In this document: in pieces, positions 1,707 through 28,789 of the stretch | Position numbering within the stretch: position 1 is the first letter of the stretch | How the letters are laid out: each line of letters opens with the position of its first letter | UHGV virus genome: UHGV-0053799 | Length of the DNA stretch: 32,153 nucleotides | Origin: a virus | Direction: 5' to 3' (one strand) | The notes under the pieces: model-generated | The model's database searches: none | What the model was told of the DNA's origin: nothing | The model's input: the letters and a program-made list of their open reading frames with translations, nothing else | Program-made: the position numbers and the translations under genes

Positions 1707-4154
1707 TTAACCGTCATGCATCATGCTGGCACGGGCACGCGCACGTTTATCCCGCTCGTATTTTTCGAGCGCATCCTGTAACTGGCGGTCAAGCTGTGTC
1801 CCCGGCGCAGTACCACCCGTCAGGCTGATGTGATATTCGTTTTTACTCTGGTCCACATAAGAGCGGCCAGCCGGTGCCGTGACCGGCTGATAAGCCTGAT
1901 AGCCTGCATAAGAGCTGGTCGCCGGAATATAACCACCGGTGCCATACGTGGCGGCATGAGTTCTGGCGGCGGTCTGGTCAAGTGTGTCTGACTCTTTGTT
2001 GATGACCCCGAGCTTTTCCAGTACCCAGTCAATACCGCTGCGCAGTTTGTTGAACACATTAAGCGGCAGCATCAGCGCGTCAGCCAGTGCCTGCCCGAAC
2101 ATGACGCCCGTGTCACGGCAACGGCTCAGGGTGTCCTGTGTGGCTTTAACCGGGGCAATCAGGTTTTTAAACCACTGCCACGCGGCCTGTAACTTTTCGC
2201 CCAGCCAGTCAAACACCGGCTTCAGTGGCGTGAACAGCTCCCCCACCGGCGCAAATGCCGCTTTCAGCCCTTCCACCACACCGCCAAAGAATGCGCTGAC
2301 AGGCTCCCAGTATTTACGGATAAGCAACGCCCCGGCGACAATGGCGGCCACCACAGCCACAACCGGCCAGCTAATCGCCCCGATGGCCGTCATAACAGCA
2401 CTGCCAACCGTCGTGAAGATTGCCCCCATTGCGCCTGCTGCCGCGATAATGGCATTGATGCCGGTGATAACCGGCCAGGCGACAAGACCAATGGCACCGA
2501 TGATGCCAGTAAGCGCCAGCGCGCCACCGACAATGAGGCCGATGGTTGACGCCAGTGATTTGTTTTTCTGGATCCAGCCGTCGAGTTTTAACACATACTT
2601 TGTGGCCGTCTGCGTGAGCTTACGCAGTGCGCCTTCCTGCTGGTCAAACAGGTCTGTCCCCACCGCCTCATAAGCGGACTGAAACTCCTTAAAGTCACCG
2701 CCGAGGTTATCCTGCATGATTTTAACCAGTTCTTCCGTTTTACCGTCCGAGGCTTTCAGCGTGGCGGTCAGCTTATCCAGTTTTCCGCTTGCTGCCGCTG
2801 CCAGTAAAACGTTCGCTGATTTCAGGGCTTCCTCACCAAAAATGGTTTTAAGGTATTCCCCCTTCTGAGACGTTCCCAGCTTATGCTTATCAAAGCTGGC
2901 CTGAATCTCTTTCAGAATGGTGAACAACGGACGCATATTTCCCTTTTTGTCCGAGGTTTTAACGTCAAGCTCTTTGAGTGCATCCCATGCTTTTCCCGTC
3001 GGTGCCTGTAATCGGGTGACAACGGCACTGCTACCCGTACCCGCCATTGACCCCCTGATGTTATTGTCATGCAGCACACCTGTCATGGCCGCTGCCTGCT
3101 CAAGACTTACACCTGCCGTCCTCGCAACCGGGCCGAGGTAAGTCAGTGCATCACTGAGTCCCTGAAAATCAGCCGCCGACTTATTCATCGTTGCCGACAA
3201 CACGTCGCCCACATGGCTGACATCATCATTTGACAGTTGAAAGGATGCCTTAGTCCCCAGCAACAATTGCGCGTTTTCTTCCATCGACCGCTGATTCGCC
3301 AGTGCCATATTCAGCGTGACCGGCGTTGCCGCCTGAATAGCCGCAGCATCCCCACCGGCTTTCGCAATGATAATCTGTGCACCGGCTGCATCATCTGCCG
3401 AGGCGGCTGTGTTGTCGCCGAGCTGGCGCGCCTGCTTGCGTAGTGCAGCCATTTCGGCAGAGTCTTTTGCCACTCCGAGCACGGCCTGCAATTCTGAGTT
3501 TTTCTGCGCAAACTCATAACCGGGCATCAGTAGCTTAACTCCGGCCATTGTTCCCGCAGCAGCAATCCCCACACCGGCAGCGCCCACTGAGGCCATATTT
3601 CCGGCCAGTTCCTTGCCTACCTGATAACGCTGTTTTACTGCGTTAAGTTTTGCCTGTTGCGCACTGACACGCGCCAGCGCGTCACGCTGTCGGTTAAGCT
3701 GTGCAGTGGTTTCACTGATACGGTTTTTCAGCCCCTGCTCATCATGTGCAAGATTGCGGGTATTAATTCCCACAGCGGCCAGTTCCCGCTGTTGGCGTTT
3801 AACGGAATCCGTCAGGCGGTTATATTTCGCCTGTAAGTCCTCCGCCGCACGCTTTGCGGATTCCAGCACTTTCGCCTGAGCACGGGTCGGACGTTCGGTG
3901 TTTTTAAACTGTGTGGCAAGGGCTTCGGCTTCCTGCCGAGCCTTTTCAAGTGCATGACCAGTCACGGCGAGCTGTGCACTGGTCTTGCGGAATCCCTCAA
4001 TACGGGATGCGTGACCGTTCAGCTCGCGCAGTGATTTTTGTGTTTCCCGGATATCCCCCGACAGCGATTTGCTCGCTGTACGGATGGATTTAAACGGGCG
4101 GGATGCCTGGTCAACAGCCCTGAGCAATACCTGTAATTTTACATTGTTACTCAT
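1707..4154 (-). CDS. T: Tail tape measure protein
   Basis: 815-aa ORF, Ala/Gln-rich coiled-coil N-terminal half and Gly/Ala-rich hydrophobic segment; directly downstream of E/E'. Confidence 0.9.
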   Translation of the reverse strand: MSNNVKLQVLLRAVDQASRPFKSIRTASKSLSGDIRETQKSLRELNGHASRIEGFRKTSAQLAVTGHALEKARQEAEALATQFKNTERPTRAQAKVLESAKRAAEDLQAKYNRLTDSVKRQQRELAAVGINTRNLAHDEQGLKNRISETTAQLNRQRDALARVSAQQAKLNAVKQRYQVGKELAGNMASVGAAGVGIAAAGTMAGVKLLMPGYEFAQKNSELQAVLGVAKDSAEMAALRKQARQLGDNTAASADDAAGAQIIIAKAGGDAAAIQAATPVTLNMALANQRSMEENAQLLLGTKASFQLSNDDVSHVGDVLSATMNKSAADFQGLSDALTYLGPVARTAGVSLEQAAAMTGVLHDNNIRGSMAGTGSSAVVTRLQAPTGKAWDALKELDVKTSDKKGNMRPLFTILKEIQASFDKHKLGTSQKGEYLKTIFGEEALKSANVLLAAAASGKLDKLTATLKASDGKTEELVKIMQDNLGGDFKEFQSAYEAVGTDLFDQQEGALRKLTQTATKYVLKLDGWIQKNKSLASTIGLIVGGALALTGIIGAIGLVAWPVITGINAIIAAAGAMGAIFTTVGSAVMTAIGAISWPVVAVVAAIVAGALLIRKYWEPVSAFFGGVVEGLKAAFAPVGELFTPLKPVFDWLGEKLQAAWQWFKNLIAPVKATQDTLSRCRDTGVMFGQALADALMLPLNVFNKLRSGIDWVLEKLGVINKESDTLDQTAARTHAATYGTGGYIPATSSYAGYQAYQPVTAPAGRSYVDQSKNEYHISLTGGTAPGTQLDRQLQDALEKYERDKRARARASMMHDG

Positions 4155-4574
4155 TCGTGTTTCCGCTTCGCCGGAGCGCCTTTTCGCGCCATGTGATGAG
4201 TTCGGTCAGGCTCATGGGATACAGTTCTGATGGCGGCCAGTGAAATATCACTGCCACATCCGCCATCAGGTCATCGACCGAGAGATTTTTTGGAAACGTC
4301 ACTGCACCGAGTTCGGCGACAAAAAACCAACCACCTTACCTGCCAGCGCCACAAGGTCAGGCAGTTCCAGCGCGGCGACCTCCTGCTCGGTCAGCATCGG
4401 TGCCGTCATGCGTGGCAGCACTTTAATCAGTGCATCGACTTCGGAGTTTGCGACCGCAGCCAGACTGACACCGCGCAGCGTCCCGGCATTGGGTTTCATC
4501 AGCGTGACCTGTTCGATAACCTGCTCACCACGCTTGACCGGATTGTCCAGGGTAATCACATTTTCTTTGTTCAT
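4147..4574 (-). CDS. E+E': Tail assembly chaperone E+E' (-1 frameshift product)
   Basis: After a -1 slip at TTTTTTG (minus strand, 4326..4320) the reading frame continues ...FFVAELGAVTFPKNLSVDDLMADVAVIFHWPPSELYPMSLTELITWREKALRRSGNTNE and ends at TAA 4149..4147, overlapping the T start codon (4154..4152). Translated by hand. Confidence 0.7.
4299..4574 (-). CDS. E: Tail assembly chaperone E
   Basis: 91-aa ORF (MNKENVITLDNPVKRGEQV...) with RBS; contains the slippery heptamer T-TTT-TTG near its 3' end. Confidence 0.85.
   Translation of the reverse strand: MNKENVITLDNPVKRGEQVIEQVTLMKPNAGTLRGVSLAAVANSEVDALIKVLPRMTAPMLTEQEVAALELPDLVALAGKVVGFLSPNSVQ
4321..4327 (-). promoter_or_regulatory. Programmed -1 ribosomal frameshift slippery site (minus strand T-TTT-TTG at 4326..4320)
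   Basis: Plus strand reads cgac-aaaaaa-cc at 4317-4328; the heptamer sits 8 codons before the E stop and opens a 57-codon extension. Confidence 0.7.
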
Positions 4575-23684: not shown

Positions 23685-23703
23685 GTGCTTTCCCCGCCTC
23701 GCC
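23685..23703. other. cos: cos cohesive-end sequence
   Basis: Plus strand gtgctttccccgcctcgcc is the reverse complement of GGCGAGGCGGGGAAAGCAC, which I recall as the P2 19-nt cohesive end; position directly beyond Q fits. Confidence 0.75.
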
Positions 23704-25357: not shown

Positions 25358-25580
25358 AGCTATCCTTTTTGCATCATCCACATAAAAAATCGACCTCATG
25401 TTAGCAACAGGATGCTTACTTTTGAATATTTGTAAGTTGTTAGCTCTCCAACCTAACTCTTTTCAACCGTCAAAAACCAGCACCAACGCAGTAAAAATAT
25501 GTCTGTCAACTAACGCCTCGCTTCGCTCGTTGTTCAACCCCGCCAGCCCTGAAAACAAGTTTCACGACTGGCGGCGTTCT

Positions 25581-25787
25581 CTATCGTCTGCGTGGTGGTG
25601 GCGCAACTCTGGACTGACCGATATCGTTAAACCGTCTGTAATTATCCCGGACTATTTCGGCACACCCGACCAACTCGTCAGGCGTCAGATTTTCGTTGAG
25701 CATAATCTGCTGTAGACGGTGAACAATGGCCATCAGTTTGATATTTTTAGTTTTATGGTGCGGTATCTCGCCTGGTATTCTGTGCAT
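25581..25787 (-). CDS. Small hypothetical protein (68 aa)
   Basis: ATG at 25787 overlaps the TAA stop of the upstream ORF (TAATG), suggesting translational coupling; no recognisable motif. Confidence 0.3.
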   Translation of the reverse strand: MHRIPGEIPHHKTKNIKLMAIVHRLQQIMLNENLTPDELVGCAEIVRDNYRRFNDIGQSRVAPPPRRR

Positions 25788-26242
25788 TATCCAAGCCACC
25801 CATTTTGCTTTGCACGCTCCACCTGTTCATCTGAATAGTTCCATATCCCATCCGTAGCAACCACTGCCCCGCCAGACATCCCCGTCTCTGGTTCATACAT
25901 AACAGCAAGGCCGAGCTGATGCATAATCTCATGATTAATTCTGAATACCAGACCACGTTCACTAAGTTCTTTCCAGTTCACAATCTTATATGCGCCCGTA
26001 TTAAGCAGCTCAATACTTAGCAAGACATAATCTTCCAGCCAGTCTGACAGGTCAGTAACATCTGTTATCCGGGCTTCAACCTTTCGCCCCGTAAACACAC
26101 CCTGCACCCATTCATGCAAAATCAGCGTGTCCCCGCGCTCATAATTACGGTCATTTTTCCGAAACTCTGCGCGTTTCTTTCCTTCCAGCACAAGGTCAAA
26201 ATATTTGGCGTGCAGCTTTACCTCGTGAATTTTTGCCATCAT
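25787..26242 (-). CDS. ASCH/DUF3850-like (PUA-fold) protein with a C-terminal extension
   Basis: GKKRAEFR fits the ASCH motif GxKxxExR; GGAG RBS; start ATG overlaps the A stop codon (ATGA); C-terminal extension contains HEIMH. Confidence 0.65.
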   Translation of the reverse strand: MMAKIHEVKLHAKYFDLVLEGKKRAEFRKNDRNYERGDTLILHEWVQGVFTGRKVEARITDVTDLSDWLEDYVLLSIELLNTGAYKIVNWKELSERGLVFRINHEIMHQLGLAVMYEPETGMSGGAVVATDGIWNYSDEQVERAKQNGWLG

Positions 26243-28524
26243 TTCCACTCCATTACTATTGAGAATCCCGGCCACTCATCAGCGACCGGATACGTGAATT
26301 TTTTCCCGTCGTAATTTACGGTCGCGCCACGCGCCAGCGCCTCAAGCTCCCATCGCTGCGGCCTGATACCGTTCTGAGCGAGATCAACGCGGATACGGGT
26401 GATTTGCAATCGTTCAGACCGGGTCAGTCTGGCCGATGGTGCAATTTCATGTGGTTTTAACGGGCTTCCGTTTCTTTGCTGACGATTTGGTGTTCTCAGG
26501 TCGTGTTTTAATGCCCCCCTGAGCGCCCTCACGACCTCCGTGTCGTTCCATTCGATAACACCGTCATCAACCAGATTAAGCACTGCTGCGGCGTGTTCAG
26601 AAGGTGTGGGAGCCGGTAACGAAGTATCACCACCGGTGAGCTTTCCACAGTTATTGACAGGACTCCGAGGCGCGGCGATGCCGCTTTTTAAAGTCAAAGG
26701 CTCAACGACCGGAACTTTCGGCACAATGCGCCAGTCCGTCGTTCTGGTGATATGAATATGACGCGCGCCGAGATGCGGCGCGTAAATGCCGACCACTCTC
26801 TCGACTTCTTCCTCGTACTCGTTAACTTCATCCGACGGACTACGGGCAACCCTGACAGTCTGACAATCGCGCGGGACATTTGCCCCACCCTGCGCGCTGA
26901 TATACAACGCAAAATCACCACTGTCTGCGGCGGCGCGTGCAGCCTCGACGCGCTCGTCAAACTCATCAGCAATGCTGACGCCGCGAGGCAATTTGCGTAG
27001 TTCACGGTAAGCCCCCATTGTCGGCAGACCAACCGTTTTAAATTGTGGGATGCGCCACGTTGACGCCCATGCGGTAACAGCCGCAGCAGTATCTTTAAGC
27101 GGTCTGCCGGTATCGTTATCGAGCTGACCATCCAGTGCATAGCCATCGATGTTTTTTGAGATGTATTTCGCGATATACCCCGCAGCACCGCCCTGGTTAA
27201 GGTGTTTTGCCTGAAAACGGTTTCGCGCGGCTCCTCTTTCGTCGCCATCCTCTTTGAGCGCATAGCGACGCATGATTTCGATAATCTGGTTACGCTGGCG
27301 TGGATTACAAAAAAGCATCATATGCCAGTGCGGCGTTCCGTCGTGGTGTGGCTCGACGACACGCAAACCGTAGACCTGTAAATCATTATCCTTGAATGCC
27401 GTGCGCATCAGGCTCCAGATGCGGCAGAGATAACGCTGCGCATCCTTTGGATTAAATGCCTCATCGTTCCAGCCGTGATTAAGCTGAACGGTTTTACTTT
27501 CGCCTTTTCTGACCTGACGAGTCGGGTGATACTTTGACGGCGCGGTCAGCGTGATAAACATCCCCACATCACCCTCTGCGGCGGCGTAACGCTCAATACC
27601 GGCAATGGTGTTCATCAGCTCCATCCGGCGAATTTCAGGATTAGAAATACTGCCCATCACCTTACTGATAAGGTCGATGCGCTCGCCGGTTTCCCTGTTT
27701 TCAAGGTCACACGATTTAAGAAATTCCAGATTTGCCTGGCGGCGTGCACGCACATCACGAATGGCATGTTTACTGGCATAAGGAGAACGGTCTTTATTCA
27801 CCTCCCCGACAGCAATCAGTAACGCCTCATGCCAGCGCATACGCTGGCCTTTGAGCTGATGAGTCCACCACTCATCGTTAAACAGACGGGCAATGGCAGA
27901 ATATGCCTGCCTCGTGGTCATCTGTCCTTTACGGTATTTTTTCCAGTAAAGCGGGGAAATATTGAAAGCACGTGCAGCGCCAGCAACATGACCATAGAGG
28001 TGAGCCTGCGCCTCATCCGTAAACAGCGATTCTTTTTCGCCATGTGCATCCACCCAGGCATCGCTGAGTTCCTCATACATCATGAAAAGCTGCGATGAGA
28101 TACGGGCAGCAAACTTTTTCAGCTCCTTGTCATTCATTCCCGGCAGGCGCGCATAGTGGTCACGCTCTGCCAGAAACAGTAACGACGCGTCGGTGTTCAT
28201 TTCATGGCGCTGATTCACACGCTCAATGCGCGGCCATAAACGACGCTGAAAAGTGGATGTGAGGAAATAAAACCCGTGCACCGGGCTTTTATTGCGCCGG
28301 ATGTAGTCATAGCGTGAAGTAAACAGCGAGCGCAAAAAGTAAGGCAGGCGGTTAATCGTGGATAAAACACCTTGCACCTGACGCATCTCGTCACGTGTAA
28401 GGGGTCTTTCGCGCCCGACGGCCTCGCGTGGCGCGTTCCATGCATAAGCACCGGTAAACGCCTTACCGGTGCCTGCAGCAAATGCTGACGGAGGGACAAA
28501 ACGCCCGGAGGCTTTAACGGCCAT
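26239..28524 (-). CDS. A: Rolling-circle replication initiator A
   Basis: Start placed at MAVKASGRF (28524), 761 aa; HUH-type motif TPHWHMMLF (about 27311-27334) and paired tyrosines YIAKY (about 27163-27177). Confidence 0.9.
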   Translation of the reverse strand: MAVKASGRFVPPSAFAAGTGKAFTGAYAWNAPREAVGRERPLTRDEMRQVQGVLSTINRLPYFLRSLFTSRYDYIRRNKSPVHGFYFLTSTFQRRLWPRIERVNQRHEMNTDASLLFLAERDHYARLPGMNDKELKKFAARISSQLFMMYEELSDAWVDAHGEKESLFTDEAQAHLYGHVAGAARAFNISPLYWKKYRKGQMTTRQAYSAIARLFNDEWWTHQLKGQRMRWHEALLIAVGEVNKDRSPYASKHAIRDVRARRQANLEFLKSCDLENRETGERIDLISKVMGSISNPEIRRMELMNTIAGIERYAAAEGDVGMFITLTAPSKYHPTRQVRKGESKTVQLNHGWNDEAFNPKDAQRYLCRIWSLMRTAFKDNDLQVYGLRVVEPHHDGTPHWHMMLFCNPRQRNQIIEIMRRYALKEDGDERGAARNRFQAKHLNQGGAAGYIAKYISKNIDGYALDGQLDNDTGRPLKDTAAAVTAWASTWRIPQFKTVGLPTMGAYRELRKLPRGVSIADEFDERVEAARAAADSGDFALYISAQGGANVPRDCQTVRVARSPSDEVNEYEEEVERVVGIYAPHLGARHIHITRTTDWRIVPKVPVVEPLTLKSGIAAPRSPVNNCGKLTGGDTSLPAPTPSEHAAAVLNLVDDGVIEWNDTEVVRALRGALKHDLRTPNRQQRNGSPLKPHEIAPSARLTRSERLQITRIRVDLAQNGIRPQRWELEALARGATVNYDGKKFTYPVADEWPGFSIVMEWK

Positions 28525-28789
28525 ATGAGCCAAAAGCCTCTGAACAACGCCTGCTGAGTTGCTCAACCTGCACGTTTAAATCAGCAAAAGACTTTGCGCT
28601 TCCGGTCAGAATATCGTGATGCATCAGGCCTGAAACGAGCTGGCTTAATTTCGGGTAATAACCAACCACCGCCAGCCATTCCTGACCGGCGTTTTTACCG
28701 CTTTCAGCTCTCTTTTTCTCGTGGAGAATAAACTGAAAGCTGTCACTGGTAACGACATAACGTTCGCCAATTTCAATACGAATACTCAT
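28514..28789 (-). CDS. Hypothetical early protein (P2 orf83 position)
   Basis: 91-aa ORF whose start overlaps the upstream stop (ATGA). Confidence 0.6.
   Translation of the reverse strand: MSIRIEIGERYVVTSDSFQFILHEKKRAESGKNAGQEWLAVVGYYPKLSQLVSGLMHHDILTGSAKSFADLNVQVEQLSRRCSEAFGSYGR

Follow-up and report, generated by a model that had tools for sequence, protein, structure and literature searches.

The window, by which we mean the whole 32,153-nt stretch of viral DNA analysed here (UHGV-0053799), belongs to a P2-like (Peduovirus) prophage type, and the genes concerned are all encoded on its minus strand. Over the 1-kb region described below, the prophage of E. coli O55:H7 USDA5905 is 100% identical, and many P2-like phages are 93-96% identical among the best-matching records. 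Read along the minus strand, the replication initiator gene A, annotated as 'replication endonuclease' in RefSeq in the USDA5905 prophage, leads into a gene of 150 or 151 codons that encodes an ASCH/DUF3850 domain followed by a DUF7415 domain. A 68-aa gene comes next, then a stem-loop, a short conserved block, the cargo genes and the cos site (Table 1). Both middle genes are already catalogued, as are the two Pfam domains and the two PHROG families, and the finding in the window is in this sense real but ordinary.

Table 1. Features between gene A and the cos site (window coordinates).
Feature	Position	Strand	Basis or remark
Replication initiator gene A, P2 gpA type	26239..28566	-	Pfam Phage_GPA 8e-123
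Full-length orf91-type gene, ASCH/DUF3850 + DUF7415	25787..26242	-	phrog_1812, Pfam, AF2
ASCH/DUF3850 PUA-like beta-barrel domain, aa 1-79, with GKKRAEFR	26003..26239	-	Sequence and fold
DUF7415 and C-terminal helix ending in GW, aa 85-150	25790..25987	-	PF24187 profile and model
HEIMH, His103-Glu104-Ile-Met-His107, second DUF7415 helix	25919..25933	-	Sequence and model
68-aa gene, phrog_11386 / PSP3 gp37 family	25581..25787	-	phrog_11386 1.9e-39
Stem-loop, 19 pairs, starting 5 nt past the small-gene stop	25536..25578	-	MFE fold, covariation
Conserved block GAACAACGAGC-N5-GCGAGGCGTTAG, 26 nt	25510..25535	-	Alignment A7
Cargo gene, 257 aa	24626-25399	-	Hydrophobic N-terminal stretch
Cargo gene, 232 aa	23829-24527	-	Hydrophobic N-terminal stretch
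cos 19-mer GGCGAGGCGGGGAAAGCAC, exact copy of the P2 cohesive end	23685-23703	-	Between cargo and portal gene Q

Overlapping codons downstream of gene A

The TGA stop codon of gene A (26241-26239) overlaps the start of the following gene. Two in-frame ATGs are available in the sequence ATGATG: the first, at 26242, creates an ATGA overlap and a protein of 151 residues, while the second, at 26239, creates TGATG and a protein of 150 residues, the choice made in RefSeq (WP_032242139.1, 'DUF3850 domain-containing protein'). At the distal end of the ASCH gene, the TAA stop (25789-25787) has one base in common with the ATG of the 68-aa gene at 25787, giving TAATG. An earlier sequence-only reading had described an ATGA and a TAATG overlap at these two places and proposed a translationally coupled chain running from A through the ASCH protein and the small ORF into a cargo hotspot. 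Both overlaps are present, and overlaps of this kind return in 62 distinct loci in which the order is also A, ASCH, DUF7415 and small gene; the chain is conserved in its layout and lies directly at the hotspot border.

Overlapping or abutting stop and start codons are kept throughout these relatives. ASCH and DUF7415 are encoded in one ORF in 61 of the 62 loci, the A junction is mostly ATGATG or ATAATG, and the small-gene junction is TAATG in 43, with an ATGA-type overlap in about 15 that represent a diverged lineage. The persistence of the overlap while the sequence changes between lineages is the strongest support that sequence comparison by itself can offer for coupled translation, and we infer that translation of the three genes is coupled. 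The three proteins would then be made together off the early transcript. The reading that we favour, with a probability of roughly 60%, is that the early (replication) operon of a P2-like prophage ends in this region with an accessory 3'-terminal part.

The hairpin and the border of the cargo hotspot

A P2-type A 3' end occurs in 1321 of 5426 complete E. coli genomes. The unit from the ASCH gene to the small gene is found in 393 of those 1321, and at least 80% of it in 345; in other prophages, A is followed by no annotated gene, by cargo only, or by a truncated ASCH pseudogene. Matches to phages end between the two domains (P2), past the ASCH stop (L-413C) or inside the small gene (12474 phages), the commonest end point being window position ~25508. 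P2 lacks DUF7415 and the small gene, and the matches end at varying points; the unit is therefore accessory. It is the eroding conserved edge of the gpA-gpQ interval, which Rousset et al. defined as a P2 diversity hotspot.

The border was also seen to vary among three E. coli prophages (L208-L210). One has 1.1 kb lacking annotated genes after A, another has ImmA/IrrE-type cargo immediately past A, and the third has an ASCH pseudogene cut at the inter-domain point of P2 Orf91.

The stem-loop beyond the small gene has a minimum-free-energy fold with z = -2.97, and its pairing is maintained in relatives. Across 66 distinct stem-loop sequences, 91.6% of cells are paired, while controls in a slid register pair at 30-47%. 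Two-sided changes occur in 10 of the 19 stem pairs, a level reached in 0 of 500 shuffles. The stem often contains U-G and G-U pairs, which can form on the sense strand only; this points to a role of the stem-loop at the RNA level. An Rfam search with the hairpin returned nothing above the gathering score: its one match, Giardia RNase MRP, scored 20 bits where 60 are required and is put down to chance. The hairpin does not fit the simple definition of a Rho-independent terminator: the stem is present and covarying, but the U-tract is missing, the tail having no T-run, and a terminator scan reported no site at the hairpin. Canonical terminators stand at the same position in distant relatives, and on this ground the hairpin is read as a structure of the early-operon 3' end, where it may act on the sense RNA in a terminator-like manner.

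The conserved 26-nt block directly follows the stem-loop. Most phage matches end just past this block, at query position 891-893, corresponding to window ~25508-25510. Since similarity between P2-like phages stops at this point, the hairpin and the block mark the true border of the hotspot; the left border of the gpA-gpQ cargo interval lies after the small gene, the hairpin and the block, and not right after A. Two other readings of these elements were discarded. As a cargo promoter (TTGAAC-N18-TTAGTT), the block has a poor -10 match and is not reported by a promoter scan. A second cos site at the hairpin block is contradicted by the true cos 19-mer, which lies past the cargo and is preceded by the same GC hairpin as in P2.

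The 257-aa and 232-aa cargo genes match phrog_3403 and phrog_23429, and their products fall into no Pfam, NCBIfam or PADLOC family. In two 186-like loci (L011 and L013), the gene for a homologue of the 257-aa protein is found on the opposite side of the small gene, flanked by the latter and tum.

The position of the border bears on the most serious alternative, according to which the ASCH-DUF7415 and small proteins are themselves hotspot cargo ('morons') that serve anti-defence or inter-phage competition and have no relation to replication. The genes do lie inside the interval of Rousset et al., only 393 of the 1321 A-carrying E. coli genomes have the unit, and DUF7415 turns up in unrelated types of phage and at unrelated positions; in addition, both proteins are small and expressed early, and PUA-like domains are known as readers of modified bases. 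However, the genes stand on the conserved side of the border, phage similarity being lost only past the hairpin block, and through the overlapping codons their expression is linked to that of A, and so to lytic growth and not to the lysogen. PADLOC gave no match above noise, and the small-protein domain is found behind two unrelated types of replication initiator, as described below. On balance we consider cargo of this kind unlikely, with a share of the probability that is nevertheless too large to set aside, and retain the accessory end of the early operon as the preferred reading.

The two-domain protein and the 68-aa protein

The 150/151-aa protein matches phrog_1812 over its full length (3.8e-81). 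Its N-terminal domain had been taken from the letters alone for an ASCH/DUF3850 domain, an assignment borne out by Pfam profiles and fold. DUF3850 (PF12961) matches residues 5-77 (1e-17, 64.5 bits against a curated cut-off of 22.9) and ASCH (PF04266) matches at 2e-10 (41.7 bits against 21.2), and the domain has the expected PUA-like beta-barrel fold. The stretch GKKRAEFR at residues 20-27 (G20-K-K22-R-A-E25-F-R27) fits GxKxxExR, which we take to be the ASCH motif. In YqfB-type N4-acetylcytidine amidohydrolases the catalytic Thr sits in GxKTxTxR. Such an activity was rejected for the window protein, in which Glu25 occupies the position of the catalytic Thr and the similarity to 1te7 and 9kyf reaches an E of only 0.23-0.26. 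The ASCH barrel may bind nucleic acid, as do other ASCH/PUA-like domains.

The C-terminal extension of about 70 residues, noted earlier from the letters alone, is kept in homologues and corresponds to the recognised domain DUF7415 (PF24187; residues 87-129, 7e-14, 52.2 bits against a cut-off of 27). In alignments of 45 and of 123 sequences, little or no variation is seen at W89, N102, E104, H107, G110, G120, S122 and G124. An AF2 model made from the 123-sequence alignment has a mean pLDDT of 88.8; this alignment replaced one of 15 sequences, which left the C-terminal domain at a pLDDT below 50. Helices are predicted at residues 89-94 and 97-109, strands at 111-115 and 122-127, and a further helix at 137-145, and in the AF2 model residues 85-150 form a small alpha-alpha-beta-beta-alpha unit. 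In fold searches this unit matched other phage DUF7415 proteins only, and sequence searches for relatives of DUF7415 among solved structures gave chance-level matches only. In both domains of the protein, pN (~0.2-0.3) is well below pS (~0.65-0.87), which argues that the ASCH-DUF7415 gene is real.

The second DUF7415 helix contains the sequence HEIMH, which the sequence-only reading had left open as either coincidence or a metal-binding site. A search for DUF7415 among 1.84 billion representatives gave 199 clusters (50% identity, E<=0.001), and of the 146 representatives listed, 118 had a motif that could be placed. In these 118, the first motif position is mostly R (46), K (22), T (16) or N (11) and is H in only 10, while 114 retain the Glu and 114 the second His. 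The truly conserved signature of DUF7415 is IN-x-E-[IV]-[LM]-H-P, and a zincin-type HExxH metallohydrolase accordingly fails at its first defining feature. Conservation of the whole HExxH in homologues, proposed as a check on the metal site, is thus not seen; the coincidental option stands, and HEIMH appears from these alignments to be a lineage-specific coincidence inside DUF7415. It is very improbable that the extension is a small zinc hydrolase or other metal site that would make an ASCH-targeted enzyme of the protein, even though HEIMH lies on the helix predicted at residues 97-109, Glu104 and His107 are nearly invariant across the family, and H-E-x-x-H is kept in the two-domain homologues of E. 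coli and of Enterobacter type: the Salmonella two-domain homologues and a Klebsiella DUF7415 protein have Y-E-x-x-H instead. The idea of a metal site in the ASCH-DUF7415 protein can be dropped.

The small protein aligns over its whole length with phrog_11386 (1.9e-39, positions 1-68 of a 69-position profile). It has 194 homologues, from Escherichia, Salmonella, Citrobacter, Enterobacter, Klebsiella and Buttiauxella; those listed are 50-81 aa long, mostly 67-81 aa, with identities down to 64%. A helical core, KLMAIVHRLQQIMxNENLTPxELVGCAEIVRDNY, is nearly invariant, a variable linker follows, and the extreme C-terminus is almost always PPPRR(R/P). The gene is annotated by PGAP. Pfam and NCBIfam hold no family for the protein, and sequence searches among solved structures reached chance level only. 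A ClpX-type C4 zinc finger (PF06689) was also considered for the window's 68-aa protein and rejected, since it has no Pfam match and relatives alone carry one.

Pairwise dN/dS values of 0.05-0.25 at saturated dS, together with the length-conserved homologues, indicate that the 68-aa ORF is a real gene, as had been supposed. One apparent exception is the Wphi record AY135739, in which the small gene and DUF7415 (3640-4360) both appear frameshifted. In the Wphi prophage of E. coli W both genes are intact, and the two sequences differ only by ~7 single-base insertions that the prophage lacks. The frameshifts are sequencing errors of the 2003 record, and its 'gp91' and 'gp92' are annotation artefacts; a small ORF frameshifted in related prophages, which would have spoken against the gene, is therefore not what the relatives contain. 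That the ORF is untranslated, and that its conservation is owed to a DNA or RNA element that overlaps it at the border of the hotspot, is hardly credible. This view can point to a conserved structured element directly adjoining the ORF, to the missing Pfam or NCBIfam family and to the Wphi GenBank record, but the amino-acid core is invariant in six genera while synonymous sites are saturated, the small-protein domain is also fused in frame to zinc fingers in other phages, and the Wphi insertions are missing from the E. coli W genome. Some 5'-shortened copies of the small gene (E. coli hits H38, H128, H157 and H158, and protein P0138) are called 'meiotically up-regulated 80 protein' in RefSeq, a name that has evidently been mis-transferred.

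Recombined modules and known systems

The two modules downstream of A also occur in other combinations. DUF7415 makes up the whole of 60-70-aa proteins in many phages of Proteobacteria, and it is fused elsewhere to a PF04447 dATP/dGTP pyrophosphohydrolase or to other N-terminal domains, near A or near Toprim primases. A cluster look-up supplied no names for the multi-domain DUF7415 proteins. Gene A lies within 3.5 kb in 49 of 80 IMG/VR loci with DUF7415, where the domain is either ASCH-fused after A or stand-alone directly before A, the latter in 186-like phages. In another group of P2-like phages, about 20 IMG/VR loci share the ORF-length pattern of L126, the one locus of this kind that was annotated with Pfam; there, a stand-alone DUF7415 (3489-3698) lies in the late operon, between the head-completion gene L and the tail gene X. 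DUF7415 is also present in two T4-like phages, MP1 of Morganella and nt-1 of Vibrio. The domain thus also occurs outside replication modules.

The slot directly upstream of A in 186-like phages holds ASCH alone in some loci (L073-L075, L081, L096 and L099), DUF7415 alone in others (L009-L011, L087 and L098) and both in L165. The modules therefore flank A separately in those phages and form one fused gene here.

The small-protein domain occurs just after A in several lineages, and it follows replication initiators of two unrelated types. In Klebsiella and Enterobacter phages, another N-terminal domain takes the place of ASCH, and the DUF7415 gene is followed, after one base, by the small gene. 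Proteins of 103-116 aa combine the small-protein domain with a ClpX-type C4 zinc finger (L019 3459-3809, PF06689 at 1.1e-11; L181-L183; L205-L207), and the genes for these fusions immediately follow A in Pectobacterium phages and Toprim primase genes in other cases. One protein of 188 aa (P0167; L008 2597-3163), encoded right after a Toprim primase, unites in one chain an N-terminus resembling the small protein (BLASTP 1e-7, hhalign 91%), a ClpX-like zinc finger, for which the match is weak (5.7e-4), and DUF7415. In 186-like phages the small gene lies at least ~750 nt downstream of A and has no adjacent DUF7415.

From these arrangements, DUF7415 and the small protein look connected. DUF7415 could be a portable partner-binding module, and the small protein might offer two contact surfaces, its helical core and its C-terminal PPPRR tail, the latter of which would be replaced by a ClpX-type zinc finger in some relatives. 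Our working hypothesis makes the small protein an adaptor with two surfaces that is associated with replication initiators and has DUF7415 as one of its partners; the two might jointly help the replication module without being essential to it. The link to the zinc finger comes from relatives, the window's own protein having none.

A bolder proposal treats DUF7415 and the 68-aa protein as the two parts of an accessory system in phage replication modules; by engaging a host factor, this system could remodel or protect the initiator or neutralise a host response to it, and the ASCH barrel would target the system to nucleic acid. ClpX is the obvious candidate for the host factor, because a ClpX-type zinc-binding domain replaces the PPPRR tail in relatives and one protein by a primase joins all three elements. 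We give this proposal only a slim chance.

A fact that counts against the helper model is that P2 lacks both DUF7415 and the small protein, and that many P2-like prophages have nothing or cargo after A. Any role in replication is therefore dispensable. The Methods of a 2025 preprint (PMC12407873) call P2 orf91 'an essential protein' and give no evidence, a statement that is hard to reconcile with the frequent absence of the gene from P2-like prophages. Literature searches found no work on what P2 orf91, DUF7415 or the small protein do, and PADLOC and NCBIfam returned no match for the ASCH-DUF7415 protein, the 68-aa protein or the two cargo proteins (none above noise in the case of PADLOC).

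If the accessory-operon reading holds, little changes for the window itself, whose genes are present in RefSeq, Pfam and PHROGs as proteins of unknown function. Annotation is corrected at two points: P2 Orf91 is truncated, and gp91 and gp92 of Wphi are artefacts. The new leads, modest as they are, lie in the domain-fusion links and the covarying hairpin. DUF7415, the gp37-type protein and ClpX-type zinc fingers occur in repeated combinations beside replication initiators of two unrelated kinds, which provides a concrete hypothesis for two widespread phage families.

Among known systems, the closest counterpart of the window gene is P2 Orf91, which occupies the same position after A and has the same overlapping start. 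P2 DNA is 96% identical over query positions 1-382, and the ASCH domain is nearly identical. However, P2 Orf91 consists of the ASCH domain only, and from residue ~76, where the tin-old cargo joins, its sequence is unrelated; unlike the window, P2 has neither DUF7415 nor the small gene. P2 Orf91 is thus a truncated form, and the window contains the intact form of orf91. The Wphi prophage in E. coli W has the two genes intact, as in the window.

Proteins with a close DUF3850/ASCH domain include PDB 3iuw from Enterococcus faecalis, YqfB and the ASCH domain of TRIP4. The ASCH domain of the window also matches positions 93-178 of 253 in phrog_986 (1.5e-42), which comprises fusions of a ParB-CTPase to DUF3850; such fusions in prophages have been reported as phage-enriched. 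The window protein differs from them in lacking a ParB-like domain and a neighbouring parA gene, its partner domain being DUF7415.

Other DUF7415 (PF24187) proteins have the same core of ~55 residues with W89, N102, E104, H107, G110 and G120. Most are single-domain proteins of 60-70 aa that lack the AKxxGW C-terminal helix of the copies adjoining replication genes, and many of the stand-alone genes sit between gpL and gpX in the late operon. The 68-aa protein is 76% identical over residues 1-58 to gp37 of Salmonella phage PSP3, which is encoded near the right genome end. In phages of the 186/PSP3 type, tum and sometimes cargo are placed between A and the small gene, and no DUF7415 gene precedes the small gene.
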